A DNA stretch of 64,000 bases from an uncultured Planctomycetota bacterium (lineage in GTDB: Bacteria; Planctomycetota; Phycisphaerae; UBA1845; CAIVHJ01): NCBI GenBank assembly GCA_942492115.1, contig CALODL010000010.1, forward strand, positions 1,635 to 65,634. The letters are read 5' to 3'. Of the stretch, positions 4,721 through 60,559 are shown in pieces. The translations under genes and the position numbers were made by a program. The first letter of the stretch is position 1; each line of letters opens with the position of its first letter. Under the pieces are notes generated by a model. That model made no database searches. It saw only the letters and a program-made list of their open reading frames with translations, and was not told the origin of the DNA.

Positions 4721-4800
4721 GGCATTGGCCGCTGCGGGGGGAAAGCGGTGGGTGGCGTCGGGATTACCCGCGAGGAACATCGCTCTGTATAATCCTCGCC

Positions 4801-6984: not shown

Positions 6985-7042
6985 TCCAGCAGTTCGTGCG
7001 GCCGAAGCGCCGAAGGTGCGCGTTATGCGTCGACGTCCGATA

Positions 7043-7312: not shown

Positions 7313-7512
7313 CACCATACCTCCTGTGGCCCATGTCATCGGACACCCGGGACCATCCCCATGACCTGCGCGGCCCCGCGGATTCGAGCGGCCGGCGGCA
7401 CAGCGCAGATCCTGCCGGCGAAGGACGCTCGAGCCTCCATGGTTGCTTGGCCGGCGTTGCGGTGGTAAATATTACCCACATTTCCAACTACCTTTGATAT
7501 GGACGCAACGAT

Positions 7513-18515: not shown

Positions 18516-18915
18516 TCATCCTCCATCTGGACTGCCGGACGGACTCGGTCCAGTGTGTGTGGCATTCTAACGATCCGCCCCGTCGGTTTTCCAACGCTTT
18601 CAAAAGATTTGAAAGTCTTGGACTACAACAGTTAACGGCCCACTGTGCCCCCTTCAAATCAGGGCGACTGTTTATAAGGTGGCGGTCGATAAACAGGGGG
18701 TAGATTGGTGGCTCAGGAGGAGCCGTTAGTGACTCAAATCGTGTGCATCGTGGCAACGCTGACTTGCGTAGCGGCAATCGCCGGCTCATCCGGGGCACTG
18801 CTTCGCGAGACCTCCTGTCGACCTTGCAATTGTCTCATTCGCCGTGATGCCCGGGCTGCCCCCAGTGTGGCACGTATCGGCGTCACGACTCGCTCGTTCA
18901 ACAGGAGATCTGACG

Positions 18916-35439: not shown

Positions 35440-37143
35440 ATGCGTTCATCGCTCGCCATCGGTTTCCCGGTGCTGCTGGTTCTCAGCAGCGTAGTGGAAA
35501 GTTCCTCAAACGCTCATGTGCTGTTGCAAGTCCTCGAAGAAGAACTGCAGTACGCGACCGAGAACCTCAAGACCGAGGATGGCACCGCCCCATACTACCT
35601 GGCATACACGATCACGGATGTCACGAGCCACTCGATCGGAGCTGAGCTGGGTGCGCTGTACAACGATGACACCGGACACCAGCGCCTGCTCGACGTCGAT
35701 GTCCGCGTTGGGGACTACACGGTCGACAACACTCACAAACTCCGCAGCGGCGGTATGGGCTTCGATCCGTCCGATTTCATGGGGCGCGGAGCCACCCCGG
35801 TCAGCATCGAAAACGATTCCAGCGCTATCAAGCAGGCTATCTGGCTCGCTACGGATCGGAAGTTCAAGAGTGCCGTCAAGAAGTACCAGCGGGTACTGAC
35901 CAACCTCAAGACCAAGGTTGAAGAGGAGGACAAGGCTGCTGACTTCTCGAAGGAACCGCCGAGCAACTTCACTGAAGAACCGATCGAATTCAATCTCGAT
36001 CACGCGGCGTGGGCTGATCGGCTGCGACGCGTGTCGAGACTGGCTCAGACATATCCACTCATCTACAAGTCATCGGTCGCACTGCGTGCATCGGCCGAGA
36101 ATCGCTTCATGGTCAGCAGTGAAGGCACGCGATTGCAAACCAGCCGTCCGCTGTTGCGTGTCGTGGTCTCGGCCTCGACCCGCGCCGAAGATGGCATGAA
36201 CCTCAACCAATCGCACATCTTCAACACCGCCACAGGGGATGCACTCCCCACCGAAGAAGAACTTGCCACGGCCTTCAAGAAAGTCATCGAGCAGGTTCTT
36301 GCGCTGCGCGAGGCGCCACTGGTCGAGCCCTACACGGGTCCGGCAATCCTGCTCAACCGAGCCAGCGGCGTGTTCTTTCACGAAATCTTTGGCCATCGCA
36401 TCGAAGGGCATCGCCAGAAGGATGTGGATGAGGGCCAGACATTCACGAAAATGATCGACCAGGAAGTATTGCCCCAGTTCCTGACGGTGCGCGACGATCC
36501 CACGCGACCCCGCTTCGGCGAGATCGACCTTCGCGGATTTTACAAGTACGACGACGAAGGCGTGCCCGCGCAAAACGTCACCCTGGTGGACAACGGCATC
36601 CTCAAGACCTTCCTGCTGTCTCGCTCGCCGGTCCAGGATTTTGTGCGGTCCAACGGCCACGGGCGGCGTGAGCCGGGCCAACGATGCGTGGCCCGCCAGG
36701 GTAATCTCATCGTCGAATCGACCAAGCGCGTGTCGTTCAGCACATTACGAGAACTGCTCATTGAGGAATGCAAGCAGCAGGACAAGCCCTATGGCCTGTT
36801 GTTCGAGGACATCACCGGCGGATTCACGACGACGCGACGACGCGGAGCACAATCGTTCAAGGTGCTGCCCGTCGTAGTCTATCGAATCTACGCGGACGGG
36901 CGCCCCGACGAACTCGTCCGCGGTGTCGACATCGTTGGCACACCACTGAGTTGCTTCTCCAAAATTACGCACACTGCCGACGACGACGCGGTATTCAACG
37001 GATCCTGCGGAGCAGAGTCGGGGTGGGTCCCGGTCTCGGCCATTTCTCCCAGTGTGCTGGTATCTCAAATCGAGATCGAGAAACGGCAGCGGGCGCAAGA
37101 CAAGCTACCACTCCTCGATCCGCCGATCGCCGAAGTGCAATGA
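35440..37143 (+). CDS. Secreted TldD/PmbA-family metallopeptidase (peptidase U62)
   Basis: Signal peptide and 'FHEIFGHRIEGH' (HExxxH). Family-typical length of 567 aa. Confidence 0.8.
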   Translation: MRSSLAIGFPVLLVLSSVVESSSNAHVLLQVLEEELQYATENLKTEDGTAPYYLAYTITDVTSHSIGAELGALYNDDTGHQRLLDVDVRVGDYTVDNTHKLRSGGMGFDPSDFMGRGATPVSIENDSSAIKQAIWLATDRKFKSAVKKYQRVLTNLKTKVEEEDKAADFSKEPPSNFTEEPIEFNLDHAAWADRLRRVSRLAQTYPLIYKSSVALRASAENRFMVSSEGTRLQTSRPLLRVVVSASTRAEDGMNLNQSHIFNTATGDALPTEEELATAFKKVIEQVLALREAPLVEPYTGPAILLNRASGVFFHEIFGHRIEGHRQKDVDEGQTFTKMIDQEVLPQFLTVRDDPTRPRFGEIDLRGFYKYDDEGVPAQNVTLVDNGILKTFLLSRSPVQDFVRSNGHGRREPGQRCVARQGNLIVESTKRVSFSTLRELLIEECKQQDKPYGLLFEDITGGFTTTRRRGAQSFKVLPVVVYRIYADGRPDELVRGVDIVGTPLSCFSKITHTADDDAVFNGSCGAESGWVPVSAISPSVLVSQIEIEKRQRAQDKLPLLDPPIAEVQ

Positions 37144-37168
37144 GCCTGACCTTCCCAGGAGTCCTGAA

Positions 37169-38914
37169 ATGACCGTCTGTTCACTGACATTGTCCCTGGC
37201 CCTTCTGGCACAAACAGCGGACCCGTCATCCGACATCATCGCCGACAACGATGTCGTCATGCGGGCACTGGTCGATGAGATGCAACGGTCCATGACGCTG
37301 CAGATGGAAGATCTGCAAAAGCCTTATTTCATACAATACACCGTCGATGACGACATCACATACCAGATGTCCGCGAGCTACGGGGCCATCACGACATTCA
37401 ATCGCGACCGCTCGCGTTCATTCCTCGGCCAGGTCCGCGTCGGCTCGCCGGAACTGGACAATACGAATTTTGCAGGCGGACGCATGTTCCGTTTTGGTGG
37501 TGGGAGCGGCGGCCGAGCGGCCCTGCCACTTGATGACGACTACATGGCCATTCGGCAGGCCATCTGGTGGGCCACGGACAACATGTACAAGCAGGCTGTC
37601 GAGACCCTGACTCGCAAGCAAGCCTACATGGAAGACAAGCAGCTCGAGGACCGGCCCGATGACCTTGTGCCGTCCAAGCCCTCCGAACATCTCGACCCGG
37701 GCGCTGAAGTCCATTTTGACCAAGCTGCCTGGCGCGCCCATGTCAAGACGCTGTCCGCGGTCTTTTCGCAGTATCCCATCGTCCAGGACTCCAACGTCCG
37801 CCTGCTGATCGGTGGCGGTAACACCTATGTGGCCAATTCGGCAGGCACACGGGTGCGCAAGAACGACCATGGCGTGCTACTGATCATAACGGCCGAGACG
37901 CAGGCCGAAGACGGTATGCGCATATCAGATGGCTTGTCTTATTCGGGCGAGACGACAAACGATCTCCCGGCAGTCGAAGCGATCCTCAAGGATATCGCCA
38001 ACATGGTCACAGGACTCGATGCCGCGCGAAACGCGCCGTACCTCGAAAGCTACAGTGGGCCAGTTCTGTTCGACGGTCACGCATCGTGCCAGATGTTCCA
38101 GTCGCTGATCTCGACTGCCATCGCCGGCAGCGTCGAACCCGTCGGCTCGCAGCGTCGGTCGATGAGCGCCAGCGGCAACATGGAGAAAAAACTCAACAAA
38201 CGCATCCTGCCCAAGTCGTTCCAGATCTATGATGATCCGACTATCAAGAAACACGGCGACCATTTGCTGTTTGGCCACTATGTTTACGATGACGAGGGTG
38301 TGCCTGCAGAACGGGTGACGATTGTCGAGAACGGTGTGCTCAAGTCCCTGGTCATGTCACAGGTTCCCACGAAGAAACTGACCGGCAGCAACGGTCATGC
38401 ACGCCGCAGCGGCGACGGCGGGCTGGCGCGGGCGGCTATCGCGAACCTGTTCATCGTCGATGACAAGGGTAAGTCAATGGACGAACTCAAAGCCGAGCTC
38501 ATCGAAGCGGCCGAAGATGCCGACCTCGAGTACGGCATCCTGATCAAATCCTTGAGGTCGGCCGGCATCGCTTCGAGCCAATCAGATCTCATGTCGTTTT
38601 TCATGCGCGCCCAACGTCGCGGGGCGCCGTCTCTGGGCGATCCGGTGTTCGCGTACAAAGTCTATGTCGAGGATGGCCGCGAAGAACTCATTCGTGGTCT
38701 GGAGTTCGCCCCCGTGGAAGCTCGAGAGTTGAAGAACATCATGGCCGCTGGCAACACGCAGGTCGTGCATAATTATGTCGGGTTCGGCACGACGGGGACG
38801 ACCCCGGCCACGTCGATCATCGCCCCGGCGGTACTCTTCGAGGAGTTGGAACTGGCCAAGATCGAGCAAGAGAAGGACAAGCTACCGATCCTGAAAGCAC
38901 CTGTCGCACGCTAG
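37169..38914 (+). CDS. Second secreted TldD/PmbA-family protein (tandem partner)
   Basis: AGGAG RBS before MTVCSLTLSLALLAQ (signal peptide). PmbA/TldD-like throughout; paired with the upstream gene as in TldD/TldE heterodimers. Confidence 0.8.
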   Translation: MTVCSLTLSLALLAQTADPSSDIIADNDVVMRALVDEMQRSMTLQMEDLQKPYFIQYTVDDDITYQMSASYGAITTFNRDRSRSFLGQVRVGSPELDNTNFAGGRMFRFGGGSGGRAALPLDDDYMAIRQAIWWATDNMYKQAVETLTRKQAYMEDKQLEDRPDDLVPSKPSEHLDPGAEVHFDQAAWRAHVKTLSAVFSQYPIVQDSNVRLLIGGGNTYVANSAGTRVRKNDHGVLLIITAETQAEDGMRISDGLSYSGETTNDLPAVEAILKDIANMVTGLDAARNAPYLESYSGPVLFDGHASCQMFQSLISTAIAGSVEPVGSQRRSMSASGNMEKKLNKRILPKSFQIYDDPTIKKHGDHLLFGHYVYDDEGVPAERVTIVENGVLKSLVMSQVPTKKLTGSNGHARRSGDGGLARAAIANLFIVDDKGKSMDELKAELIEAAEDADLEYGILIKSLRSAGIASSQSDLMSFFMRAQRRGAPSLGDPVFAYKVYVEDGREELIRGLEFAPVEARELKNIMAAGNTQVVHNYVGFGTTGTTPATSIIAPAVLFEELELAKIEQEKDKLPILKAPVAR

Positions 38915-48618: not shown

Positions 48619-51600
48619 CTACCGTTCGCGTCGGTGCACGACTTCGATGTGCGCTGCCGTAACCTCTTCAATCGCGATGTAGCCGTGCGCTGACGTCGGA
48701 AACAATACCGTACGCGCAGAGGCATCGTCGGGATCGTAAGCAAGCGACACGATGAAAGTGCCCCGTGCATCTTTGCTGGCCCGCAGCGTCAGTGTGGCGA
48801 GGTATGCACCGTCCAATGCATTCACACCTGGACGATCAAGCCCTGCTACCAACTGCCGCGTGCGCAGGTTGTAGGCATCCCACCAGGCGCCGGGATCGAA
48901 TACATGATCATCATGCTCCTGAACGGCCAAATCGATGAGATCGAGTGCCCCCGCCGTGCCACCGAGCACCTCGAAATGGAGTTGATAACCTCGTAAGTCA
49001 AAGACTGCAGCATCCAGGCGTACGGTCACCTCCACGGTACCGCCCGGGCGAACGGCGGGGCTCTGCGGGTCCAGACGTACGGCAGTGGTCCCAACGACCT
49101 CGGGGGTGATCATCGGCGACGGACCGCCATCCAACGGGCAACTGCACGACGACGCCCCCTCGAAAGCGTTCAAGGCGGCAAATGCATCGTTGCCGTCACA
49201 CACACCATCTGGTTCGCAGCTACCAAACTGACCACCGCAATCCACATTAAAGGCCACTGGAGCCTCCACCTCACACGGGAATGATGCCGGCGGCGGTGTG
49301 TTGGGATCGACGTCAGCGAAACAGTTCAACGCCAGAAAGCGATCGTTACCATCTGCGGTCCCATCAGGTGCACACGCGCCGAACTGGCCGCCCATGTCGC
49401 CGAATACGACTTCGGTTGCCTGGCACACACCCGCTCCGCACAGCCACCACACGCAGCCATCGTCGCGCACCCCATTGTTGTCCAGATCGGCGCAGTCGGA
49501 CACGATCGTACAGTCACCCCCTCCACAACCGATGGCATCTTCATCGAGTTCGTCATCGCAGTCATCATCGATACCGTCGCACGTCGCATCCTCTGCCGCC
49601 GGTTCGCCCGGCATACAGTCATCGATGACCACACCCTCGACACAGACGGTCATGCCACTGGCCATACACGCGCCTATCCCACAGAGGGTCTTACTGGCTT
49701 CGAAGTCCTCATCGAAGATGGCATCACAGTCATCATCGATGCCATCACACGTCGCGTCATCCACGGCCGGAGTACCCGGGACGCAACTGTCGGTCGGGAC
49801 ACCGTCAACACAACCCGACAGCCCCTCGGACGCACACGCACCCACGCCGCACGTCGTCGCCGTGCTCATCACATCCTCGTCGGTCAGACCGTCGCAATCA
49901 TCGTCGACCCCGTCGCACGTCGCATCGTCCACGGCCGGAGTGCCCGGGACGCAACTGTCGGTCGGGACACCGTCAACACAGCCCGACAACCCCTCGGACG
50001 CACACGCACCCACGCCGCACGTCGTCGCCGTGCTCATCACGTCCTCGTCGGTCAGACCGTCGCAATCATCGTCGACCCCGTCGCACGTCGCGTCGTCCAC
50101 GGCCGGAGTGCCCGGGACGCAACTGTCGGTCGGGACACCGTCAACACAGCCCGACAGCCCTTCGGACGCACACGCACCCACGCCGCACGTCGTCGCCGTG
50201 CTCATCACGTCCTCGTCGGTCAGACCGTCGCAATCATCGTCGACCCCGTCGCACGTCGCGTCGTCCACGGCCGGAGTACCCGGAACGCAGCTGTCGGTCG
50301 GGACACCGTCAACACAGCCCGACAGCCCTTCGGACGAACACGCGCCCACACCGCACGTCGTCGCCGTGCTCATCACGTCCTCGTCGGTCAGACCGTCGCA
50401 ATCATCGTCGACCCCGTCGCACGTCGCGTCGTCCACGGCCGGAGTACCCGGAACGCAGCTGTCGGTCGGGACACCGTCAACACAGCCCGACAGCCCTTCG
50501 GACGCACACGCGCCCACACCGCACGTCGTCGCCGTGCTCATCACGTCCTCGTCGGTCAGGCCGTCGCAATCATTGTCGACCCCGTCGCACGTCGCGTCGT
50601 CCACGGCCGGAGTACCCGGAACGCAGCTGTCGGTCGGGACACCGTCAACACAGCCCGACAGCCCTTCGGACGCACACGCACCCACGCCGCACGTCGTCGC
50701 CGTGCTCATCACGTCCTCGTCGGTCAGACCGTCGCAGTCCTCGTCCACTCCGTCACACAGCGTGTCACTGACCGCTGCACCCGCGAACGGGTCACATGAA
50801 TCCTCGACAGCACCCGCCACACACGTCAGCACACCGGTGTTGCCGGCACAGGCTCCTACGCCACACTCTGATGGACTGGACACATAATCTTCATCGAACG
50901 AACCATCACAATCGTCATCGAGGCCATCGCATGTCGGATCGGTTGGCGCGGGTGGAGAATGGTCACACACCCCTGCCACACAGGTATCGAGGGTGCAGTC
51001 GTCAAAGTCATCACACAAACTGTCGTCGGGCACGCCCACGCAGGACCCGTCGGTACAGGTATCGACGGTGCACACGAGACCATCATCACATGGCAACGTG
51101 TTGTCCGTCGCGACGCAATTCCCGGCCCCGTCACACGCATCATCGGTACATGGATTGGTGTCGGCCGTACACGGGGTTCCCGCAGAACTGGCCACATTGC
51201 TACACACACCTGCGGTACAGGAATCATCAGTGCACTCGAGACCATCGGCGCAATCGGCCGGGGTCACGACATCGAGGGTCGCAACCAGACTGGTCGCATC
51301 CCCACAGGAGTTGGTCACGACCACGTCGTAATCACCCGCATCGGCAGGTCCCACTGGATCGATGAGCAACGTCGGTTGATCTGCTCCAGGAATCGGTGTG
51401 CCCTGGAATCGCCATGCATAGGTCAACGGCACGCTGCCACTCGGCGTGACGTCCAACACCACGCTGTCGCCCGAGCACACGCTGGAAGATTCAGGTGGAG
51501 TGACAATCACCGGCGGCACACATGGCCCCGTGATGCAGAAGCGCTCGAAAGAAAACACCTGCGCTGCCGGCGCATTGCGGTGAGTCGCAAACAGACCCGC

Positions 51601-54600
51601 GAACGTCACGGGGCCCGTCATCCCATCCGGTAGAACCACGCCATTGAACAGGTCGGAGGTCATCACGACGGTGCCGACCGGCACAGCGGCGCCACCATTC
51701 ACGGCATAGGCGGCGGTCACCTCCTGGGTCGTTGGATCGAGTGACATCGACAGAACGACGTCGTCACCGCTGACCGCGATGTTCTCGATCTCGACCCCAC
51801 CGGGGCTGCTCCCGCCCTCCTCTCCACGGACCTCGACGTCATAGTTCCCGGGGGTCGATGAGAAAACAATGAGTTTGACGTAGGTGTCCTCATCGAGAAA
51901 GACCCACCCACCTGCCTGCGCAAACCCGCGCGTCGCGACGGGCAAGTTGTTGAGCGCAATGTCAACATTCAGTTCGGACGTCGCATCGACGGCCACACCG
52001 AGTCCATTGTCCAGTGAGTTGTTGGAGGTGAACTGGATGCCGGCCGTCGTCGTTAGCGCCAGCTCACCACTCACGATGTCCACATCGATTTGCCCGGGCA
52101 GATACCCGGCCGCGTTCGATGGCGGATCGACCATGGTGAATCCCGTGCCGTCCCCATCGACATCCTCCAAGCCCCCCTCGTCCATCTCCCAGTCGAGCTT
52201 GAACGGCAGGCTGACGGGCACATCGACGCAGTCGAGCATTGAAATCGGGTTGCACCCGGCACCTGGCGTCACTTGTAAGGTGACCATGAGTGTCGCGTCG
52301 GCGTAGCCACTGGATGTGGCCGTTACCGTCGCCGTGTACGCCCCCGGCGCCAGGCCATCGGTCGCGACTTCTACATCGAACGGGATGTCGGCCGTGACCT
52401 GCGCCGCGACCGTCAACCAAGTCGGCTCCAGACCGGTCGCATCGTCAACCGCCGCAATGTCCGCAGTCGGGGATTGTCCGTCGTTGGCGGTGACCGTGGT
52501 GCTGGCCGAGTCGATATTGCTGCCTTCTTCCATCATGAACGGCAGGAGCGCGGGTGAGAACGCCAATGCAGGCGGAGCAGCGGGCTCCGCAAGGCAGAAA
52601 TCCTCGAAGACGAAATCGAGTGTCGAGCCGTTGCGCTGCGTTGCGAATACACCCGCGAAACTGACTGGGCCGGTCATGCCGTCGGGCAAAGTGACGCCAG
52701 AGAACAGGGCATTGTTCACGGTGATCGCATCAACCAGCATCTCGCCACCACCGTTGACCTGCACAAGCCCACTGACCTCGGAAGTTTGCGGATCGAGGAC
52801 CATCGTCAGCTTGACGTGATCACCAGGTACGACGATGCTCGCGGTAGCAGAACTCTCGACGAACTGATTGCTCTGCTCGTAGAGAATCTCGACCTTGTAG
52901 CTGCCGGTGACGTCCGAAACGACGACCAACTTGATGTAGTGCGATTCATTCAGGAAGAACCACACGCCCGCCTGCTCGAACTGACCGCTGACGGCAGGCA
53001 GGTTGATTATCGTTGTTTCAATGCGCGTGTCCTGGGCGCTGGCATCCCAGGCGACGCCCAGGCCATTATCCAGAGAATTGGGATTGTTGGCCGTCTCGCC
53101 GAACTGAATCCCGGGCGTCGTTGTGATCGTGAGTGTTCCCGCTCCAGTGTCGACGGCCAGATTGTTCGGCAGGTATCCGGCCCCATTGCTCGGCGGATCA
53201 ACCATGGTGAAGCCGGTCCCCACGCCAGAATTGTCCACCAGACCGTCTTCCGAAGCGTCCCAGTCAAGCTTGTGCGGCAGCGTAACCGGCACGTCGGCGC
53301 AGACGGGTTGGGCCAACACAGCGCAATCGCCGGATGGAGCCAACTGCACGTTCATGACCACGAAATCAAAGTCCTGGTAGTCGCCATGAAATGCGTCCTC
53401 GAAGGCGACGAAATAGGCGTATGGCACAACGAAACCCTGGCGGTCCTTCAACGGGTAAACCCTTGCGGAATGCGCTGACTGCGCTGGATTGAGCGCGATG
53501 TTAAGATCGTCTTCGGTGTAAGCCGTGTGCGAAGGGCTGGTGATGTAGAATCCGAATGCCCCAGGCCCAGGATCGAATGTCGTCACCCCGGAAGTCATCT
53601 CGGGAAACAGCGTCTGGTGCTCCGCCGGACTCGATGCGCCGCTGAGTACCCCCACTTGCGTGAGGGACGGGGCTGCGCCGTTCGGCCCGTAGTACCCATA
53701 GGGCAGCGCGAATGCTGGAGAATAACGTGCGACCGGCACCATGACCACGTCACCGGATCCGGACTTTGTGAACAGTGATGCGGGCACTTCGTCACCAATG
53801 GGTGCTGCGTCGACGCCCAGCTCCAGCTCCGTTCCCCCGACGTCGATAGCATGCCCCAACGTCTGAACAACATCGTGCAACGTAGGTTCATTGGAGCCCT
53901 CGAGGCCGTCGGCACTGAGGCCGTGAACACCCACCTGAACGACGGCCTCATTGGGGTCGTCGCTGGCGATCTCAACAGCGGCGCTGAATGTGCCAACGGC
54001 TGTCGCACCGGGCGAAAAAGCGATATCGATCATCACTTCCGCGCCGGGTATCAGCGTCACGGGGGTGGTCGGCGGGGTCACGATGGTGAACTCACCCGCA
54101 TCAGCGCCGGTCAATGCCACGGTTGCAATCTCGAGATCTGCCGTGCCGGTGTTGGATAGAGTCAAAACCTGCGCTGGCGTGACTGTATCCTTAAGGCCGC
54201 TGTACACCAGGTCAGATGCCGACAAGCCAATATCCGGTACACCGGATCCGCCGAGAGGACGACACAACGTGATTTTGGATGCCCCGAATTCAGATACATA
54301 AAGATGCCCATTGTCGAGGTTCTCGACGACATCGAGCGGGTTATTGAAACCGGTGAGACCCGTGATCCCCGTCTGCGATGCCACGATCTCCAAACCGCTG
54401 CCACTTGGCGTCAGGGCCATGAGATCATCTCCGCTGCTGTAGCGGACGACCAGCAATGCCCCCTGAAGGTCACCGGCTGAACGATACTCGATGATCCCAT
54501 TCGGCGATTTGTGCGTACCAAAATCGAAGACCGCCCCACGGTAGTTGCTGTCCGGCAGGGTCCCCTCGGGATATTCGGTGACCTCGAGTGGATCTACTGC

Positions 54601-55575
54601 TGCCGTCGGATTCGCGCCGCTCATGGCAAACTCGCAGCGCTGCGGATTGGGATGACCGTAGTAACCACCGGGTTCGATGCGCAGCAGATAGTCCGGTTGA
54701 ATCGACACACCGACCAGGCCGGTCACGGCCGGCCCGCCGTATGAACTGCCGTCGGCGCAGGCCGCACCCACCACGCCTTCGGGGGTATTGCCATTGGGAG
54801 CAGAACCGTTGTTCGGTATGTACAGGTGACCGTTGCCATGCCACACCAGATCGTAGGCGTTGCGCAGCCCGCTGGCATGGATGGTCAGAGCAGCGCCCGG
54901 CGCATAGGGATCATACGTGCCCGGCAGCTCGGTCATGACGTCGAGTGGCGGAGTCGCCACGCCCAGCGTGTCGAAGCGCAACACCGCCGCGGACAGTCCC
55001 CGTTCTGCACGGTCAGCCCACGCGGGGTCGGGTGCGCCCATCGCGGAATTGGATCCCTGCACGACATACAATGCTCCGTCGGGCCCGAATACCATGCTGT
55101 TGGTCGTGTGGTCGCGACTCGAGCGCGGCAGGCCGACAATGAAGTCCTGGACGTTCTGCAAGTGGCTGCCACTCAAACGGGTGATCTTGCCGGTCCAGTC
55201 CGCCATTTCAGAAAAACCGTATTCGCTGTGGCTGACCCAGGCAATGAGGTTCTGTGGTGTAGAGGCTGGATCGAAAGCCAATCCGATCGCCAGACGATCT
55301 GCTCCCTCGGCAACTTGCAGCGCATCAAGGATCTCGACTGCCCCCAGGATGCCATCTGAATCGATGGACCAGCGCCGCACCTGCCCCTCGAGCGTCAAGC
55401 CATAGAGCTGCCCATCCGGTCCGATCGTCAGACTCGTATACTGTGCTCCTGCGGACGTAGGCAACGATACCTGTTCAAAAGTCGCGCCGTCTGCGCCGGC
55501 CAGGGCAGCCAGGCACGACATCATCCCCACGACCGCTGGCCTGATAGCAATGTTCACGAACGTTCCCTCCTGCAC
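48619..55575 (-). CDS. Giant secreted multidomain protein (2318 aa): SGDH-like beta-propeller, choice-of-anchor-D/ASH-like domain, two ConA/LamG-like modules, Ig-like domain, ~10 Cys-rich 'CDGxDDDCDGxxDED' repeats, two dockerin-like repeats, C-terminal beta-domain
   Basis: Single uninterrupted ORF. N-terminal domain motifs 'FGPDGALYVVQGSNSAMG' and 'GLRNAYDLVWHGNGHLY' (glucose/sorbosone dehydrogenase-like). Two internally duplicated ~330-aa modules. Cys-rich repeats of the Myxococcus-type pattern. 'GGQFGACAPDGTADGNDRFLALNCF' occurs twice (dockerin-like Ca loops). Confidence 0.9.
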   Translation of the reverse strand: MQEGTFVNIAIRPAVVGMMSCLAALAGADGATFEQVSLPTSAGAQYTSLTIGPDGQLYGLTLEGQVRRWSIDSDGILGAVEILDALQVAEGADRLAIGLAFDPASTPQNLIAWVSHSEYGFSEMADWTGKITRLSGSHLQNVQDFIVGLPRSSRDHTTNSMVFGPDGALYVVQGSNSAMGAPDPAWADRAERGLSAAVLRFDTLGVATPPLDVMTELPGTYDPYAPGAALTIHASGLRNAYDLVWHGNGHLYIPNNGSAPNGNTPEGVVGAACADGSSYGGPAVTGLVGVSIQPDYLLRIEPGGYYGHPNPQRCEFAMSGANPTAAVDPLEVTEYPEGTLPDSNYRGAVFDFGTHKSPNGIIEYRSAGDLQGALLVVRYSSGDDLMALTPSGSGLEIVASQTGITGLTGFNNPLDVVENLDNGHLYVSEFGASKITLCRPLGGSGVPDIGLSASDLVYSGLKDTVTPAQVLTLSNTGTADLEIATVALTGADAGEFTIVTPPTTPVTLIPGAEVMIDIAFSPGATAVGTFSAAVEIASDDPNEAVVQVGVHGLSADGLEGSNEPTLHDVVQTLGHAIDVGGTELELGVDAAPIGDEVPASLFTKSGSGDVVMVPVARYSPAFALPYGYYGPNGAAPSLTQVGVLSGASSPAEHQTLFPEMTSGVTTFDPGPGAFGFYITSPSHTAYTEDDLNIALNPAQSAHSARVYPLKDRQGFVVPYAYFVAFEDAFHGDYQDFDFVVMNVQLAPSGDCAVLAQPVCADVPVTLPHKLDWDASEDGLVDNSGVGTGFTMVDPPSNGAGYLPNNLAVDTGAGTLTITTTPGIQFGETANNPNSLDNGLGVAWDASAQDTRIETTIINLPAVSGQFEQAGVWFFLNESHYIKLVVVSDVTGSYKVEILYEQSNQFVESSATASIVVPGDHVKLTMVLDPQTSEVSGLVQVNGGGEMLVDAITVNNALFSGVTLPDGMTGPVSFAGVFATQRNGSTLDFVFEDFCLAEPAAPPALAFSPALLPFMMEEGSNIDSASTTVTANDGQSPTADIAAVDDATGLEPTWLTVAAQVTADIPFDVEVATDGLAPGAYTATVTATSSGYADATLMVTLQVTPGAGCNPISMLDCVDVPVSLPFKLDWEMDEGGLEDVDGDGTGFTMVDPPSNAAGYLPGQIDVDIVSGELALTTTAGIQFTSNNSLDNGLGVAVDATSELNVDIALNNLPVATRGFAQAGGWVFLDEDTYVKLIVFSSTPGNYDVEVRGEEGGSSPGGVEIENIAVSGDDVVLSMSLDPTTQEVTAAYAVNGGAAVPVGTVVMTSDLFNGVVLPDGMTGPVTFAGLFATHRNAPAAQVFSFERFCITGPCVPPVIVTPPESSSVCSGDSVVLDVTPSGSVPLTYAWRFQGTPIPGADQPTLLIDPVGPADAGDYDVVVTNSCGDATSLVATLDVVTPADCADGLECTDDSCTAGVCSNVASSAGTPCTADTNPCTDDACDGAGNCVATDNTLPCDDGLVCTVDTCTDGSCVGVPDDSLCDDFDDCTLDTCVAGVCDHSPPAPTDPTCDGLDDDCDGSFDEDYVSSPSECGVGACAGNTGVLTCVAGAVEDSCDPFAGAAVSDTLCDGVDEDCDGLTDEDVMSTATTCGVGACASEGLSGCVDGVPTDSCVPGTPAVDDATCDGVDNDCDGLTDEDVMSTATTCGVGACASEGLSGCVDGVPTDSCVPGTPAVDDATCDGVDDDCDGLTDEDVMSTATTCGVGACSSEGLSGCVDGVPTDSCVPGTPAVDDATCDGVDDDCDGLTDEDVMSTATTCGVGACASEGLSGCVDGVPTDSCVPGTPAVDDATCDGVDDDCDGLTDEDVMSTATTCGVGACASEGLSGCVDGVPTDSCVPGTPAVDDATCDGVDDDCDGLTDEDVMSTATTCGVGACASEGLSGCVDGVPTDSCVPGTPAVDDATCDGIDDDCDAIFDEDFEASKTLCGIGACMASGMTVCVEGVVIDDCMPGEPAAEDATCDGIDDDCDDELDEDAIGCGGGDCTIVSDCADLDNNGVRDDGCVWWLCGAGVCQATEVVFGDMGGQFGACAPDGTADGNDRFLALNCFADVDPNTPPPASFPCEVEAPVAFNVDCGGQFGSCEPDGVCDGNDAFAALNAFEGASSCSCPLDGGPSPMITPEVVGTTAVRLDPQSPAVRPGGTVEVTVRLDAAVFDLRGYQLHFEVLGGTAGALDLIDLAVQEHDDHVFDPGAWWDAYNLRTRQLVAGLDRPGVNALDGAYLATLTLRASKDARGTFIVSLAYDPDDASARTVLFPTSAHGYIAIEEVTAAHIEVVHRRER
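49575..50760. repeat. 168-bp tandem repeat array inside the giant gene (about 6 near-identical core units at 49744-50752, flanked by degenerate units)
   Basis: Period-168 recurrence of 'GTCGCACGTCGC' at 49912, 50080, 50248, 50416 and 50584. Each unit encodes a 56-aa 'CDGVDDDCDGLTDEDVMSTATTCGVGACASEGLSGCVDGVPTDSCVPGTPAVDDAT'. Units differ by 0-3 nt. Confidence 0.85.
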
Positions 55576-57160: not shown

Positions 57161-58111
57161 TCAGTTAACCTTTTTGCGCACCTTTGGTTTAGGCGGAACA
57201 CGTCGTTGAGGAGCTGGCGACCGCGGCAGCGACGGTCCCACGGGCGAGTCAGCCGGGCGCGTCAGTGGATGCGGATACGCTGCGTCCAATGCCGGTGCTT
57301 CGTGGAACACTTCGGTGCGACCACTACGCACGGCGATGCGCATGATGCGGGGGTTCATGCGCTGCCCCACCGGATCACGGTCCTGGCGCATGAACAGAAT
57401 CTCCGTCGCGTCAGCTGAGAACACGGGACGCGTGTCGCAGTGTTCACCAGTCGTGAGCATCTTCACGTAATCGGAATCGAGCTCTTTCACACGCAGCCCG
57501 CCGTTGGACACAAAAGCGAGGAGATGCCCATCCGGAGCCACTGCAACCTCGACGGCCGTCGTAATCGTGCCATCGCGATCGTAGGCAATCCGCTGGACGC
57601 GTCGGGTGTCGGGATCGAAGCGGTAGATGTGGGAGAGTGCGTCTGTATCGTTCTCGAACAGCAGCCCCCGTGAGTCGGGCATCCAGGCCGGAAGCCTGCC
57701 GCGCGCGACCACATGGGAGATCCCTGTGCCTTCGTCGAGTGTATAGACACTCCAACCGGCCTGGGCGGTATAGCCGGAAAAAGCCAGCCGCATGCCATCC
57801 GGCGAGACGACTAGTCCATCCAGCATTTTCCAGCCGGCGGAGACGAGTCTGCGGCCGCTGCCGTCCAGCGCGACATACCACAAACTGGTATCGCCAGCGA
57901 AGTACACGCCACGGTTGTCCGCAGAGAAGGCTACGGCCGATGTGTCGGCGGTTCCCGGGATCGGACGGCGGCCGCCGCTGTCGTAATGGAGCACGATGGC
58001 CTTTGGCGTCACGACCGCTGCATACAGCGAATCGACCTGCTGCGTGCCGGCTTGAACGACGGGCATCTGAGCGCAGGTCGTCACCAAGATGTTGAGCACA
58101 AACAAGATCAT
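57161..58111 (-). CDS. Periplasmic PD40/TolB-like beta-propeller repeat protein
   Basis: Signal peptide 'MILFVLNILVTTCAQMPVVQAG' and repeated 'SPDG../..FSADG../..APDG' blade motifs. Last gene of the STK-sigma operon. Confidence 0.7.
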   Translation of the reverse strand: MILFVLNILVTTCAQMPVVQAGTQQVDSLYAAVVTPKAIVLHYDSGGRRPIPGTADTSAVAFSADNRGVYFAGDTSLWYVALDGSGRRLVSAGWKMLDGLVVSPDGMRLAFSGYTAQAGWSVYTLDEGTGISHVVARGRLPAWMPDSRGLLFENDTDALSHIYRFDPDTRRVQRIAYDRDGTITTAVEVAVAPDGHLLAFVSNGGLRVKELDSDYVKMLTTGEHCDTRPVFSADATEILFMRQDRDPVGQRMNPRIMRIAVRSGRTEVFHEAPALDAAYPHPLTRPADSPVGPSLPRSPAPQRRVPPKPKVRKKVN

Positions 58112-58151
58112 GAAAACTGTCCTGATCGATACGTGTGCTGAATGGTCCAGG

Positions 58152-58754
58152 CTACTCGAGAATGTCACCCAGCTCGTGCCGCAAGCGTTGCAACACGCGT
58201 GAACGAGCCACGCGCACCCCAACAGGACTCATGCCCAACTCATTAGCGACGTCAGCTGTCGGACGTCCATCCACGACCGTAGCCCAGAAAGCCGACCATG
58301 TGTTGTCCCTGAAGTGCTCTTGCACCTGCATGAGCGCTCTGCGCAATACACTGTTGAACGCTGTCTCTTCTTCGGACGCGTCGACCCTGATCTGCGCCTG
58401 GAACGGCACCTCTGACATACGACGTTGGATTTCGGTTCCACCCTGACCGGGTGGTTCTCGATCGCGACGGCGATAGAGGTCACACACCTTGCTGTACGTA
58501 ATCGTGCGCAGCCATCCGCGGAAGGTCCCGCCCTCACTGCGTACCTCGAACCGCGACAGGTTGGCCGCTGCAGCGTGGAACACCTCTTGAAATACGTCGG
58601 CAAGATCTGCCTCGGGCACCTGCCATCTGCGACACCAGTGGTACACCAGAGGCGCGTACAATTGTACGAGGCGCCCCCACGCCTCGGCATCGTTGGCCCG
58701 GGCGCGTTCCAGCAGGCTCGGTGAAGTCCTGGCGCTGTCCGTAATCCTGTTCAT
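58152..58754 (-). CDS. ECF (sigma-70 family) RNA polymerase sigma factor
   Basis: Region 2 'LVQLYAPLVYHWCRRW...ADLADVFQEVF' and region 4 'ANELGMSPVGVRVARSRVLQRLRHELG'. The ATG overlaps the kinase stop (ATGA at 58751-58754). Confidence 0.85.
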   Translation of the reverse strand: MNRITDSARTSPSLLERARANDAEAWGRLVQLYAPLVYHWCRRWQVPEADLADVFQEVFHAAAANLSRFEVRSEGGTFRGWLRTITYSKVCDLYRRRDREPPGQGGTEIQRRMSEVPFQAQIRVDASEEETAFNSVLRRALMQVQEHFRDNTWSAFWATVVDGRPTADVANELGMSPVGVRVARSRVLQRLRHELGDILE

Positions 58755-60559
58755 CGCCGCCCCAATCGTTCGAATACCGCGACGCTGACCGCCGAGATCA
58801 AACACGCGCTGGCAATCCCGATGATCCACACAAACGTTCCACGCAACCCGGCGCGCGTACGCGCCAGATCCCGTTCCAACGGATGAATGATCTCGAGCAC
58901 ACCGCGCACATCGCCGACCTTCCAGTCCGTCTTCGTGCTCGCAGGATGGCTGTTGTGGCATCCGATACACGACGCCTGCATCAACCGCGCGGTTGCATAC
59001 CGCAACGCATAGCGACCATCGACGTGCTCGAAGCGATAGACCGGGTCCGCGGGCACATTCCTCAGTGACATGAGAGCTGCGCGTTCGAATTCGTCACGCG
59101 GTCCGCCATCTGTCCGCGTTGTGAAAGGATAATCACTATACAGCCTCACTTGCATACCATATTCACTCTTACGCATGTCCTCACCCAGTGCAATGGTGAA
59201 TGTTGCCGGGAGCGGGATGGCACCGGCGCGACCGACGAAGTCATGGGTTACATCCACACCGGCGGCGTGCATCGGCGTGGCAACCGCAATGCTGTAGAGT
59301 GCATTCATTCGCTCGAGCATCTCAGCCTGCATTGCGGCGCTATCGAGCGCAGTTTGTTCCATGAGATGGCCAGACAATCTTGACAGATGCAGCAGTCCTC
59401 CCGCCAATCCGAGAACAACCGCGACGGTGAGCGAGGACACTACGGGATTGCGCCGACTCCAGCGCCACACACGCTCGGGAGCGCCAATCGGGCGGGCGGC
59501 GATCGGTTCACCAGCCAGAAAGCGCCGTTGATCGCATGCCAGGTCGCCAGCTGTCGCATAGCGCCGTGCCGGGCTCTTGGCCATGGCCTTGAGGCATATG
59601 GTCTCGAGATCTCGCGGAATACGATCGTTCAAGCGCCGCGGTGGCCTGGGATCCTCCTCCAGGACCTGCATGAGGACCATGCGCCGCTGACCACGAAAGG
59701 GCCGCTCGCCAGTGAGCAACTCATACATCATCACGCCAAGGCTGAACACGTCGCTGCGCGCATCGACAAAATGCCCTTCGCCTCGGGCCATCTCCGGGGA
59801 CATGTACGCTGGAGTGCCCATCACGTCGCCGGCACGGGTCACGGTGACCTCGCCCGCGTCGCGTTTGGCCAGACCAAAGTCCATGACATGCGGCTGACCG
59901 TTGGAATCGATCATGATATTGGCGGGTTTGATATCACGATGAATGATCCCGCGCGTGTGGGCGTAATGCAGGGCCTCGGACACTGTTAGCAGCAGATCAC
60001 AGACAACGCGCGGATCGCAGCGCTCATTGCGGATGCGATGCTCGAGTGTCTGCCCTGCGATATACTCACTCACCAGGTAGCACGTGCCGTCATCCGTCTC
60101 ACCGGCCTCGAACAATGCGACAATGTTCTGGTGCTTGAGTTGCGCCGCGCTGCGGGCCTCACGCAGAAAACGTTGGCGATCTTCATCTGTGCCCAGCACG
60201 TGGCTGCGGCAGACCTTGACGGCTACGATGCGTTCGAGCTGCGTATCGCGGGCTCGAAACACGTGGCCAAAGGACCCGCTGCCCAACTCGGACAGTAGCT
60301 CGAAGCGTCCGACACGCACAACCCCATCGCGCAATGCACGGGCCATGCGCCGGCCGGGATCGACGACAAGTTCTGCGCCTTCGGCCATTGCCGTCAGTGC
60401 CGCATCGAGCAACGGACGGGGTAGAGTCACTTCGTCGCTGACACCAGATGCTTCAAGACTCGACAGACGTTCGAACAGTTCGTCGGTCGGACGGTCGAGC
60501 TCACCAAGCGCGAGGGCACAGGATTCGCAAACCGCGACATGCTCGGCAATGACATGCAA
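58751..60559 (-). CDS. Hanks-type Ser/Thr protein kinase with an N-terminal CxxC segment, a TM-flanked periplasmic DUF3365/Tll0287-like domain carrying CxxCH, and a second C-terminal TM
   Basis: 'LGSGSFGHVFRA', 'VAVK', 'HRDIKPANIM', 'DFG', 'GTPAYMSPE'. TM1 'LTVAVVLGLAGGLLHL', then a periplasmic segment with 'CIGCHNSHP', then TM2 'FVWIIGIASACLISAVSVAVF'. Confidence 0.9.
   Translation of the reverse strand: MHVIAEHVAVCESCALALGELDRPTDELFERLSSLEASGVSDEVTLPRPLLDAALTAMAEGAELVVDPGRRMARALRDGVVRVGRFELLSELGSGSFGHVFRARDTQLERIVAVKVCRSHVLGTDEDRQRFLREARSAAQLKHQNIVALFEAGETDDGTCYLVSEYIAGQTLEHRIRNERCDPRVVCDLLLTVSEALHYAHTRGIIHRDIKPANIMIDSNGQPHVMDFGLAKRDAGEVTVTRAGDVMGTPAYMSPEMARGEGHFVDARSDVFSLGVMMYELLTGERPFRGQRRMVLMQVLEEDPRPPRRLNDRIPRDLETICLKAMAKSPARRYATAGDLACDQRRFLAGEPIAARPIGAPERVWRWSRRNPVVSSLTVAVVLGLAGGLLHLSRLSGHLMEQTALDSAAMQAEMLERMNALYSIAVATPMHAAGVDVTHDFVGRAGAIPLPATFTIALGEDMRKSEYGMQVRLYSDYPFTTRTDGGPRDEFERAALMSLRNVPADPVYRFEHVDGRYALRYATARLMQASCIGCHNSHPASTKTDWKVGDVRGVLEIIHPLERDLARTRAGLRGTFVWIIGIASACLISAVSVAVFERLGRR

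Follow-up and report, generated by a model that had tools for sequence, protein, structure and literature searches.

A giant exported protein of a Planctomycetota-like bacterium with a sugar dehydrogenase-like head and a widespread C-terminal module that joins dockerin-like repeats to a predicted cohesin domain

The open reading frame and its surroundings

The window, that is, the whole stretch of 64,000 nucleotides that was analysed, contains an open reading frame (ORF) of 2318 codons plus a stop at positions 48619..55575 of the minus strand, the strand that also carries all the protein features described below; over its 6.9 kb, the frame is not broken by a single stop codon or frame change. 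The database version of the product, P0001 (NCBI-derived, 2312 aa), starts six codons downstream, at codon 7, and is 100% identical to it; the ORF is real and intact. The product has hundreds of homologues, with E-values down to 0, so the ORF is not a chance one. A probable Sec signal peptide, recognized by reading the sequence, covers residues 1-28 (55492..55575) and ends in NIAIRPAVVGMMSCLAALAGA immediately before DG; the alignments with homologues start at residues 26-33. The ORF encodes a large modular protein that a Planctomycetota-like bacterium exports, in agreement with the original prediction of a secreted mosaic protein, all the quoted motifs of which were found and the domain order of which is largely as described.

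The ORF is next to genes for a POT transporter, enoyl-CoA hydratases, a PD40 protein and a Ser/Thr kinase and to several ORFs that gave no hits, and none of these neighbours points to a functional link with it. The window contains no second cohesin or dockerin and gives zero matches to Rfam, and neither genes for PQQ synthesis nor a redox partner domain turned up in those of its genes that were examined. The Ffh protein encoded in the window has its best matches, at only 53-55% identity, in Planctomycetota of several classes.

The N-terminal head

Following the signal peptide, residues 29-445 (54241..55491) comprise an SGDH-like beta-propeller with the motifs LPRSxxDH156xTN, FGPDGxLY, GxR238N239xYD and GGYYGHPN. 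In HMM searches, residues ~48-290 yield weak matches to the GSDH family and to TIGR03606; in particular, the propeller scores 21.6 bits against PF07995, below the cut-off of 25, and 28.8 bits against TIGR03606, below the cut-off of 434.55. A profile of the propeller family matches the sGDH of A. calcoaceticus (1c9u/5min) with E 1.4e-6, and in the profile alignment D155-H156 is equivalent to sGDH His144, and R238-N239 to Arg228/Asn229. At least 95% of 111 homologues retain D155-H156, R238-N239 and the 'GG(N/Y)YG(W/H)P' motif, and H156, R238 and N239 are invariant in a set of 16 sequences. The HMMER alignments to sGDH end at sGDH residue ~250-290, and so include only the N-terminal ~60% of the propeller, the C-terminal half giving no alignment to sGDH. 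Many homologues of the head pass the PF07995 threshold in precomputed annotation. The relationship to SGDH that was originally proposed for the propeller is therefore supported; its catalytic activity, with scores below every curated cut-off, is not.

The propeller is followed by a choice-of-anchor D / HYDIN-VesB Ig-like domain (residues 449-545; 53941..54231; PF22544), the prediction of which is borne out by NF012200 (55.2 bits against a threshold of 45), and by a conserved, unassigned domain of ~190 aa, denoted X here (residues 555-745; 53341..53913), which in homologues always comes after the propeller and the choice-of-anchor D domain. Domain X ends in the motif 'AFED..GDYQDF', which we take to resemble the DUF4114 signature; a match to DUF4114 was obtained for only 2 of 16 domain X members, with E 0.03, and the domain X profile yielded zero matches among PDB sequences. 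Further downstream are two ConA-like modules (residues 746-1004, 52564..53340, PF17851 GH43_C2; and residues 1103-1350, 51526..52269), with GH43_C2 HMM matches at residues ~866-985 and ~1213-1339, and between them lies an Ig-like spacer (residues 1005-1102; 52270..52563) with weak similarity to cadherin and He_PIG domains (E 0.16-0.6), which recurs in homologues (query residues 997-1104). The two modules are indeed duplicates, with 49% mutual identity, as had been noticed, but each spans ~255 aa, not ~330 aa. The head is completed by the anticipated Ig-like domain, an immunoglobulin domain of the Ig_3 / I-set type (43 bits) at residues 1354-1429 (51289..51516).

The head cassette consisting of the propeller, the choice-of-anchor D domain and domain X is widespread: it was detected in 110 proteins, at 37-59% identity and usually together with ConA-like modules, and is found in more than 100 giant surface proteins across phyla. 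Eight homologues of this N-terminal cassette contain the canonical Pfam Dockerin_1 domain, so the combination of an SGDH-like propeller with a dockerin, which had been presented as unfamiliar, is not unique. We found no paper that pairs any two of the terms 'sorbosone dehydrogenase', 'malectin' and 'choice-of-anchor'.

The cysteine-rich stalk

The segment of residues 1433-1540 contains 16 cysteines and includes four units of the 'CxDxxxCTxDxC' type (residues 1441-1540; 50956..51255), three of which were identified by a regular expression and the fourth, CTADTNPCTDDAC, by eye; these units are of the same type as the Dicty_CTDC/DUF4215 units of paralogues. They are followed by nine MopE-type units of 56-58 aa (CDGxDxDCDGxxDED plus CGxGxC...; residues 1541-2014; 49534..50955) with 50 cysteines, in which the MopE-type motif PF11617 scores 48.3 bits against a gathering threshold of 27. 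Thus, the array of about ten 'CDGxDDDCDGLTDED' repeats that had been described does exist as a Cys-rich array, with a corrected count of nine and four additional units of the other type. A 168-bp tandem DNA repeat (49730..50758; 6.1 copies, 96% identical, in frame) encodes six near-identical 56-aa units of the stalk. The stalk is disulfide-rich, and six of its nine MopE-type units are the result of a recent expansion of this 168-bp tandem repeat. Its role would be to hold the head at a distance from the point of assembly.

The C-terminal module

The last ~300 residues form a conserved module that consists of a cysteine hairpin, two loop-helix repeats, a Pro-rich linker and a domain with a cohesin-like fold. 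The module starts with a DxDxxGxxDD loop and a disulfide beta-hairpin (C.ADLDxxGxRDDxCxWWxCxxGxC; residues 2015-2057; 49405..49533; strands 28-33 and 36-41). The dockerin-like pair (residues 2058-2146; 49138..49404) comprises repeats A (residues 2058-2089) and B (residues 2106-2141), with CSC at the end. Each repeat has the pattern GGxFGxCxPDGxxDGNDxFxALNxF, a loop followed by a helix (predicted helices: module residues 62-73 and 114-125), and the HMMs of the two repeats cross-match with E ~1e-10, which indicates that they are mutually homologous.

The sole curated model that detects these repeats is NF041540, 'dockerin_GC', a family that is not described in any paper we found. It matches residues ~2060-2145 in two stretches, with 28.3 bits for the segment of residues 2040-2170 (cut-off 29) and 23.1 bits for the segment of residues 2015-2154; in both repeats, the match is limited to model positions ~4-36 of 67. 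The same model also matches 22 of 27 members of the tail family (E≤0.01; lowest E-value 1.1e-6). Dockerin_1 (PF00404) matches neither the ORF segment at E≤1 nor any of the 27 family members; the profile of the dockerin-like family finds no dockerin among PDB sequences at E≤10; and a search for homologues with the dockerin-like alignment retrieved only 18 unnamed fragments. In a manual register of the EF-hand loop, aligned to the helix start, conservation is seen at D5, G6, D9 and D12; positions 1 and 3 vary, and an invariant cysteine occupies position 2. Moreover, the invariant pair C2126/C2085 mirrors the pair 2074/2137, which consists of two alanines in 87 sequences and of two cysteines in 19, and these mirror-image pairs support a pseudo-twofold packing of the repeats. 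The region is thus predicted to be two duplicated loop-helix (F-hand) segments with a pseudo-twofold, dockerin-like fold. Of the calcium-binding dockerin pair in the original prediction, the loop-helix fold stands; given the failure of Dockerin_1 and the missing ligand positions 1 and 3, calcium binding stays putative. Inter-repeat disulfides may, in part, stand in for the N-terminal half of the usual calcium site.

A short Pro/Gly-rich linker (residues 2147-2158; 49102..49137; in the family, median length 13 aa and 29% Pro) leads to the last domain (residues 2159-2314; 48634..49101), which ends 4 aa before the end of the protein. The AF2 model of the ~300-aa tail module has a pLDDT of 82.5 and a pTM of 0.80, with pLDDT >90 for the C-terminal 155 residues (module residues 145-300), and the top 30 Foldseek matches obtained with this model are all cohesins, with E-values down to 1.8e-7. 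As modelled, this C-terminal domain adopts the cohesin fold, a nine-stranded flattened beta-sandwich that can be superposed on solved cohesins. No Pfam family, including the cohesin family PF00963, matches residues 2160-2318 at E≤1, precomputed annotation of 37 tail homologues gives no Pfam domain (0/37), and the fused unit of dockerin-like repeats and cohesin is covered by neither Pfam nor NCBIfam models. The invariant residues of the domain are D2193-LRGYQLH-2200, W2232, N2236, Q2241 and D2247; the polar ones among them, R2195, Y2197, Q2198, H2200, N2236, Q2241 and D2247, are on predicted strands 3, 5 and 6. In cohesins, the dockerin-binding face is made up of strands 8-3-6-5. The model of the dockerin-like region alone is poor (pLDDT 56.8, pTM 0.39), and the pLDDT of this region is higher in the model that includes the cohesin-fold domain.

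The C-terminal beta domain without a transmembrane anchor that was originally noticed is therefore real, and no membrane anchor was identified; what had been missed is its cohesin fold. With this fold at its end, the protein has a potential partner built in, and no scaffold with cohesins of its own is required. The T9SS C-terminal sorting domain PF18962 does not match the ORF product and is present only in the Bacteroidota homologues of the head; identification of the last domain as a sorting domain of the T9SS or another known type was rejected since it lacks HMM support and the predicted fold is that of cohesins.

The family of the C-terminal module

Searches with the tail module detected 967 protein clusters at E≤1e-3 and 358 at E≤1e-30, and in 189 fetched proteins the module ends at a median distance of 9 aa from the C-terminus. 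The module is the C-terminal end of these 967 clusters, and the passenger domains that precede it are unrelated to each other; among 36 tail-bearing proteins, they include Reprolysin (3), P_proprotein (2), TSP_3 (2) and LTD (1). With the same tail on about 1000 other secreted clusters, the gene described here is part of a large, barely described, putative surface-assembly system. Between 11 and 12 cysteines are conserved in the module, with C2022 present in 73% of the members.

Exactly one dockerin-like pair and one cohesin are found in 151 of the 189 tail proteins. The variants include six proteins with a cohesin on either side of the dockerin pair, six with two dockerin pairs and one cohesin, and two with the whole module twice. 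None of the ~190 module-bearing proteins scanned contains more than two cohesins, and neither a membrane anchor nor a multi-cohesin scaffold was identified. The same tail is present in two paralogues that are apparently encoded on one contig, the purple acid phosphatase P0192 and P0246, which has a propeller and malectin; for four JGI homologues, the gene context is dispersed and a conserved operon is absent. MI/APC covariation in 170 tails revealed clear intra-domain pairs and weak, subfamily-driven pairs between the dockerin-like and cohesin domains, and the latter were set aside as evidence of an interface because the signal is weak and confounded by subfamilies. When genome contigs were scanned with the alignment of the tail, none of the 44 pattern matches was a true relative, and the corresponding metagenome scan found nothing; a metagenome scan with a degenerate DNA pattern for DLRGYQLH(L) gave 96 stretches, with one real short contig among the 80 loci listed.

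Possible functions of the head and the C-terminal module

We propose that the ORF product is a glycan-directed surface protein that is joined to others via cohesin-dockerin contacts, in an arrangement close to the hypothetical 'planctosome', an explanation to which we would give an even chance. Under this proposal, the most likely role of the head is to bind a sugar or a glycan and possibly to oxidise it with PQQ, and the tail would be a device for protein-protein assembly, the dockerin-like part of one protein plugging into the cohesin-like part of another. Diverse secreted enzymes and binding proteins could thus be linked, head-to-tail or in branches, at the cell surface into a scaffold-poor, cellulosome-like or 'planctosome'-like assembly. 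Evidence for binding in trans comes from the unbalanced variants, with their extra cohesin, extra dockerin pair or doubled module, and from the presence of the same tail in P0192 and P0246, apparently on the same contig. A bolder version, which we consider rather doubtful as a whole, is that the tail is a self-complementary plug-and-socket tag, in which a disulfide-stapled, possibly calcium-independent dockerin and its cognate cohesin cause dozens of enzymes per genome to polymerise into a scaffoldin-free coat, with the ORF product as a sugar-oxidising or lectin subunit. Such polymerisation would proceed head-to-tail on planctomycete-type cells and would branch via the adaptors that have two cohesins or two dockerin pairs.

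The long ORF itself could, in principle, be an artefact of assembly or annotation, if mis-assembly of the 168-bp repeat had produced or altered it or if it really comprised several genes. The six copies are 96% identical, and the copy number of near-identical repeats is commonly wrong in short-read assemblies; nevertheless, the repeat unit is 56 codons, so the frame is preserved whatever the copy number, and no stop codon or frame change occurs in 6.9 kb. Furthermore, independent full-length homologues cover the head with the MopE repeats (P0005 and P0121) and the repeats with the tail (P0246), and we regard an artefact as extremely improbable. A question of a different kind, independent of the tail, is whether the propeller is an enzyme at all. 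Some proteins with the SGDH fold are non-catalytic ligand binders, and it is a serious possibility, to which we assign somewhat less than an even chance, that the propeller is a ligand-binding domain that retains SGDH motifs, the protein being an adhesin or lectin. This is compatible with the scores below the cut-offs (21.6 against 25 bits for PF07995, 28.8 against 434 for TIGR03606), with the confinement of the sGDH alignment to the first ~250 residues, with the lectin-like and Ig-like domains that flank the propeller and the frequent presence of malectin among the homologues, and with the failure to find PQQ genes or a redox partner domain among the window genes examined. By contrast, the retention of the His144, Arg228 and Asn229 equivalents in at least 95% of 111 homologues suggests selection for an active site, the 'GG(N/Y)YG(W/H)P' motif is kept to the same extent, and many of the homologues are above the PF07995 threshold in precomputed annotation.

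With regard to the tail, the dockerin-like part might instead bind the cohesin of its own chain, so that the 300 residues would form a rigid, cis-locked tag for sorting to, or anchoring in, an export or attachment system or the envelope. By analogy, this tag would be a positional counterpart of the T9SS C-terminal domain and not a device for intermolecular assembly, a role for which the Bacteroidota homologues of the head, with PF18962 at the equivalent C-terminal position, offer a parallel. The 1:1 ratio in 151 of 189 proteins, the short linker (median 13 aa) and the better model of the dockerin-like part next to the cohesin fit same-chain binding equally well, and the proximity of the module to the C-terminus (median 9 aa in 189 proteins) and the whole-module pTM of 0.80 are in line with it. 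However, an extra N-terminal or internal cohesin, or a second dockerin pair, leaves at least one module unpaired, and a Pro/Gly-rich linker is what would be expected between independent modules; on balance, we deem the cis-locked tail, including its analogy to the T9SS domain, unlikely although worth keeping in mind. Still less probable, in our opinion, is a classical arrangement in which the ORF product is a cellulosome-type enzyme subunit whose dockerin docks into a separate multi-cohesin scaffoldin, its own C-terminal domain being incidental. The dockerin-like fold of residues 2058-2146, the existence of head-cassette homologues with canonical Dockerin_1 and the separate anchor and adaptor proteins of the published planctosome model are all consistent with such docking, but the ORF product possesses its own cohesin, none of the ~190 scanned module-bearing proteins goes beyond two cohesins, and there is no other cohesin or dockerin in the window.

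Programmed extracellular protein assembly has its standard example in the cohesin-dockerin pairing, which is much reused in biotechnology; to our knowledge, what is known of this pairing beyond cellulolytic Firmicutes comes almost entirely from counts of domains. In the present case, both partners are fused in one conserved C-terminal unit, on about 1000 clusters with very different enzymatic heads. If binding in trans, as in the explanation that we favour, is true, it would explain the surface organisation of the many giant secreted proteins of these bacteria, would put the planctosome idea on a molecular footing that can be tested and would provide a compact, disulfide-stabilised, possibly calcium-independent pair for protein engineering. 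If the plug-and-socket version is also true, this would be a new way to build extracellular multi-enzyme assemblies and the first mechanistic basis for the planctosome. The head cassette, in turn, is widespread and uncharacterised, so that definition of its substrate would annotate hundreds of environmental proteins.

Comparison with known systems

The best solved relative of the propeller is A. calcoaceticus sGDH (1c9u; PF07995), in which the counterparts of the invariant H156 and R238-N239 are His144, which is catalytic, and Arg228 and Asn229, which are PQQ/substrate residues. Unlike sGDH, the propeller described here sits inside a 2318-aa multidomain protein and does not reach any of the curated cut-offs. 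The combination of this propeller with the choice-of-anchor D domain and domain X also occurs in giant proteins of Bacteroidota (for example, P0028 of Poritiphilus flavus and P0056 of Flavimarina), with cassettes 39-42% identical to that of the ORF product and with ConA-like or malectin modules as well. In these Bacteroidota homologues, the dedicated C-terminal module for surface attachment is PF18962, a tail that is cleaved and lipid-linked by the T9SS, whereas in the ORF product this place is taken by the dockerin-like and cohesin module.

With respect to the tail, the closest parallel is the 'planctosome' that was proposed for Nemodlikiaceae (CL500-3, Phycisphaerae) on the basis of non-cellulosomal cohesin and dockerin proteins, in a purely bioinformatic model with cohesins on an anchor and an adaptor and dockerins on peptidases (Andrei et al. 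2019, ISME J, PMC6461901). Both cases involve planctomycete-type genomes and secreted giant cohesin/dockerin proteins that are unrelated to cellulose. The planctosome passengers, namely, LTD, the proprotein-convertase P domain, TSP3 and M12B reprolysin (PMC6461901), recur in the tail family, a likeness at the level of domain type. In contrast to the planctosome, nearly every member of the tail family combines the dockerin-like pair and the cohesin in a single fixed unit at the C-terminus, and the ORF product has a sugar-dehydrogenase-like/lectin head as its passenger. To judge from nothing but its name, 'GC-type dockerin domain-anchored protein', and its length of 67 positions, NF041540 represents a terminal dockerin alone, whereas in the present module a cohesin follows.

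The cellulosomal type I pair (the Xyn10B dockerin and CipA cohesin of C. thermocellum; 1ohz, 2ccl) resembles the module in that its dockerin consists of two duplicated loop-helix segments, and D5, G6, D9 and D12 of the F-hand loop are retained in the dockerin-like repeats. The identity to this pair is 9-24%, however, and the Pfam Dockerin_1 and cohesin models are both unmatched. In the dockerin-like repeats, loop positions 1 and 3 are non-acidic, position 2 is an invariant cysteine, and the two repeats are ~52 aa apart, not adjacent. Moreover, both partners are on one polypeptide with 11-12 conserved cysteines, and the tail has no link to plant cell-wall enzymes. Finally, the non-cellulosomal cohesin/dockerin protein of Archaeoglobus fulgidus (cohesin 2xdh) is archaeal and contains a dockerin of the canonical calcium type without cysteine staples; it is a single protein, whereas the tail described here is a tag common to hundreds of proteins.

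The C-terminal dockerin-cohesin tail

The protein encoded by the gene examined here (window 48619-55575, minus strand) belongs to a large family, whose noteworthy feature is a C-terminal tail with predicted dockerin and cohesin folds. A search with aa 2040-2318 retrieved 37 proteins of 208-488 aa, most covering more than 85% of the query segment at 35-57% identity, with no Pfam domain detected in any of them. The alignment of these tails showed that the unit begins upstream of aa 2040, at about aa 2015, with a cysteine hairpin of the form 'C..xxCADLDxDGxRDDxCxWWxCxxGxC'. The last domain (aa 2159-2314) had no match in any HMM library used, and no Pfam or NCBIfam model covers the tail. When aa 2015-2318 were modelled with AlphaFold2 from 38 sequences, a pLDDT of 82.5 and a pTM of 0.80 were obtained, with the last ~155 residues exceeding 90, and the best 30 Foldseek hits of the last domain were cohesins without exception, at probability 1.00. 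Thus, judging by the model, the query ends in a cohesin that directly follows the dockerin-like repeats; it is here above all that the original prediction, which noted a C-terminal beta domain but missed its fold, needs correcting.

The two repeats that precede this domain ('GGxFGxCxPDGxxDGNDxFxALNxF', aa ~2060-2145) score 28.3 bits against the 'GC-type dockerin' model NF041540 (cut-off 29), on which we found no literature. Among 27 members of the tail family, 22 match NF041540, under its threshold, and none matches Pfam Dockerin_1; the family profile of this region also found no solved dockerin. Each repeat consists of a loop followed by a helix of 11-12 residues, and the HMMs of repeats A and B match each other's sites (E ~1e-10), indicating that the repeats arose by internal duplication. 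Modelled alone, the region is predicted poorly (pLDDT 56.8). An invariant cysteine pair, C2126 in loop B and C2085 in helix A, has its mirror image in positions 2074 (loop A) and 2137 (helix B), which are Ala/Ala in 87 and Cys/Cys in 19 of 170 sequences and yield the fifth-strongest covariation signal; such mirrored pairs would be expected of a pseudo-twofold packing in which two F-hands are stapled by inter-repeat disulfides. With the loop register assigned manually from the start of the helix, the loops retain D, G, D and D at positions 5, 6, 9 and 12, vary at positions 1 and 3 and have the invariant cysteine at position 2, so that the calcium site would be partial at best. By sequence, then, the repeats qualify as dockerins only marginally; by predicted fold they do, with the caveat that the model is poor. 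The predicted pair of homologous loop-helix repeats therefore stands, as a dockerin-fold variant outside the canonical family, given the sub-threshold NF041540 matches, the lack of Dockerin_1 matches, the fold and the partial calcium site.

Distribution and architectures of the tail family

When 1.84 billion cluster representatives were searched exhaustively with HMMER and the tail profile, 967 proteins matched at E<=1e-3, 358 of them at E<=1e-30. Among the 189 proteins with a local HMM match, for which architectures were counted, 151 have the order hairpin-Doc-Doc-Coh (Doc, dockerin-like repeat; Coh, cohesin-fold domain) and 12 have Doc-Doc-Coh with the hairpin undetected. The rest comprise Coh only (7, some of them fragments), Coh-hairpin-Doc-Doc-Coh (6), two Doc pairs before one Coh (6, one pair being partial in 2 proteins), short Doc-Coh fragments (4), the whole unit twice (2) and Doc-Coh-hairpin-Doc-Doc-Coh (1). 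Proteins in which the cohesin, the dockerin pair or the whole module occurs a second time (P0123, P0152, P0164, P0212, P0219, P0297; P0159, P0162, P0299; P0161, P0306) are candidates for a branching or adaptor role. The median distance from the end of the cohesin to the C-terminus is 9 residues, and the Doc-Coh linker has a median length of 13 aa, 29% of it proline.

The tail-bearing proteins (290-2316 aa among the 150 representatives listed) carry mutually unrelated passengers: in 36 members, these are beta-helix (5), FG-GAP (3) and M12B reprolysin (3) domains, along with disintegrin, P-domain, TSP3, LTD, purple acid phosphatase, malectin and several propellers. In the small tail-bearing proteins P0124, P0126, P0130, P0140 and P0147, we noticed in alignment columns ~200-300 an N-terminal motif of ~60 aa, 'Y.L..TIDGGGG.S.GG.Y.L.GTIGQPdaG...GG.Y.L.GGFW', that belongs to no Pfam family. 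Two proteins of ~2,300 aa are apparently paralogs encoded in the query's genome outside the window: both share the query's Cys-rich stalk and dockerin-cohesin tail but differ from it in the head. P0192 has a purple acid phosphatase and disintegrin head, and P0246 contains a distant propeller, malectin and MopE units, with a tail region 54% identical to that of the query. The genome thus uses the tail repeatedly, with the query's copy being the only one in the window. The family comprises ~1,000 clusters in the protein databases, whereas the DNA collections yielded essentially none: two alignment-based scans of genome and metagenome contigs found no relatives, and a DNA pattern found one short contig. 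The lineage seems to be poorly represented in these collections.

The head, the stalk and the integrity of the gene

The domain list of the original prediction is essentially right. The SGDH-like propeller (aa 29-445; PF07995, 21.6 bits against a cut-off of 25; TIGR03606, 28.8 against 434) is followed by a choice-of-anchor D domain (aa 449-545; 55.2 bits, cut-off 45), a conserved domain with no Pfam or NCBIfam match (aa 555-745) and two ConA-like modules (PF17851; aa 746-1004 and 1103-1350; 49% identical) of ~255 rather than ~330 aa, separated by an Ig-like spacer (aa 1005-1102) with only weak cadherin/He_PIG matches. Beyond these lie an Ig_3/I-set domain (aa 1354-1429; 43 bits), four CxDxxxCTxDxC-type units (aa 1441-1540; three found by regular expression, one by eye) and nine, not ~10, MopE-type units (aa 1541-2014; PF11617, 48 bits).

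A whole-protein search detected 672 proteins at E<=1e-5, and mapping of the matches identified aa ~31-745 as a single block shared, at 37-59% identity, by 110 proteins of 1,300-4,000 aa; it is usually accompanied by the same ConA-like module and often by malectin, Big_5 or He_PIG. Far from being unique to the query, the head is a common cassette, and its named carriers include Bacteroidota (with the T9SS tail PF18962), Tepidisphaeraceae, Gaiellaceae, Ilumatobacter, Gemmatimonadaceae and Myxococcales. Overall, the architecture most like that of the query is found in a protein from a Myxococcales MAG (P0005/P0121, TFH22034.1), with a 58% identical head followed by MopE repeats. Eight head homologs (P0003, P0012, P0013, P0014, P0017, P0050, P0061, P0078) contain canonical Dockerin_1, so the combination of propeller and dockerin, originally thought to be unprecedented, was already present in databases.

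Homology of the propeller to the SGDH family is supported by matches to A. calcoaceticus sGDH in a single-sequence phmmer search (E 5.5e-4) and with a 16-sequence profile (E 1.4e-6), along with residue conservation, although the curated thresholds of PF07995 and TIGR03606 are not reached and the C-terminal blades do not align. 'GLPRSSRDH156TTN' aligns with sGDH 'GLP-SSKDH144QSG' and 'GLR238N239AYDL' with 'GHR228N229PQGL'; in our own reading, 'GGYYGHPN' resembles 'GGNYGWP'. The motif residues are invariant in the 16-sequence set and at least 95% conserved in the 111-sequence cassette alignment. The three best-known catalytic residues of sGDH are thus kept, and catalysis is plausible. For the aa 555-745 domain, a PDB search gave nothing and DUF4114 matched weakly in only 2 of 16 members; its terminal motif, 'AFED..GDYQD', resembles the DUF4114 signature. 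Given the lectin-like modules and the malectin of relatives, the head is most likely glycan-directed, and PQQ-dependent oxidation is possible.

As predicted, the gene is a single open frame of 2318 codons, and a 2312-aa protein from the NCBI-derived set (P0001), starting six codons further in, is 100% identical to its product. The N-terminal sequence (…NIAIRPAVVGMMSCLAALAGA|DG) looks like a Sec signal peptide, and the alignments of homologs start at aa 26-33. The sole part of the frame not to be trusted without long reads is the copy number of a 168-bp tandem unit (window 49730-50758; 6.1 copies, 96% identity) that encodes six near-identical Cys-rich stalk units; the array looks like a recent expansion, whose copy number is likely to be variable and unreliable in short-read assemblies. 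Because the unit equals 56 codons, the frame is kept at any copy number.

Genomic surroundings

G+C is uniform, about 60%, over the whole window, and the Ffh encoded in the window shares no more than 53-55% identity with its best matches, from Planctomycetota of several classes. The source is probably a planctomycete-type bacterium that lacks a close reference genome. The neighbors of the gene (a POT transporter, two enoyl-CoA hydratases, a PD40 propeller, a Ser/Thr kinase and several ORFs without matches) offer no functional link to it, and the homologs on four JGI contigs are likewise scattered. The PD40/TolB-like gene (57161-58222, minus strand) adjoins a Ser/Thr protein kinase fused to a Tll0287-like domain (58751-60559, minus strand). 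In another locus (L082), the gene of tail-bearing P0158 is flanked upstream by a gene with weak cohesin-like matches (4068-4958; E 5.5e-6) and on the other side by a PD40/Tricorn-N propeller gene (6458-7471); the presence of a PD40 gene in both places may be coincidence. Elsewhere in the window are divergent GT87-family glycosyltransferase paralogs (9014-10303, minus; 10443-11780, plus), three SPFH/Band 7 genes (the adjacent pair 18844-20505 and 20508-22202, plus; 31325-32677, minus) and overlapping TldD/PmbA-type metallopeptidase genes (35440-37143 and 37052-38914, plus).

Possible role of the tail and relationship to known systems

Fused as the obligatory C-terminus of many secreted proteins that are unrelated to each other, the dockerin and cohesin folds point, on the simplest reading, to a tag for protein-protein assembly, in which the dockerin-like part of one protein would bind the cohesin of another. 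We attach about as much belief as doubt to such assembly in trans. It is favored by the unbalanced variants with an extra cohesin or dockerin pair, by the Pro-rich linker and by the strong family-wide conservation of putative recognition residues, namely 'GND(R/A)FHALNxF' in both helices and, in the cohesin, 'DLRGYQLH', N2236 and Q2241 (predicted strands 3, 5 and 6). Conversely, the 1:1 Doc:Coh ratio in 80% of the members, the shortness of the linker and the more confident modelling of the dockerin region together with the cohesin than alone are what one would expect if the tail were locked in cis, as a single-chain anchoring or sorting domain; this we consider rather improbable. Classical docking of the query to a separate scaffoldin appears more doubtful still, to the point of being very unlikely.

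The nearest published idea to assembly through such tails is the 'planctosome', a system of cohesin and dockerin modules in Nemodlikiaceae (Phycisphaerae), proposed on bioinformatics alone, with carrier proteins that contain LTD, P-domains, TSP3, HYR and M12B/M14 peptidases (Andrei et al. 2019, PMC6461901). The passengers of the two systems overlap. In the family described here, however, both modules are fixed in one tail, its dockerin being a variant stapled by cysteines, and the passenger of the query is an SGDH-like/lectin head.
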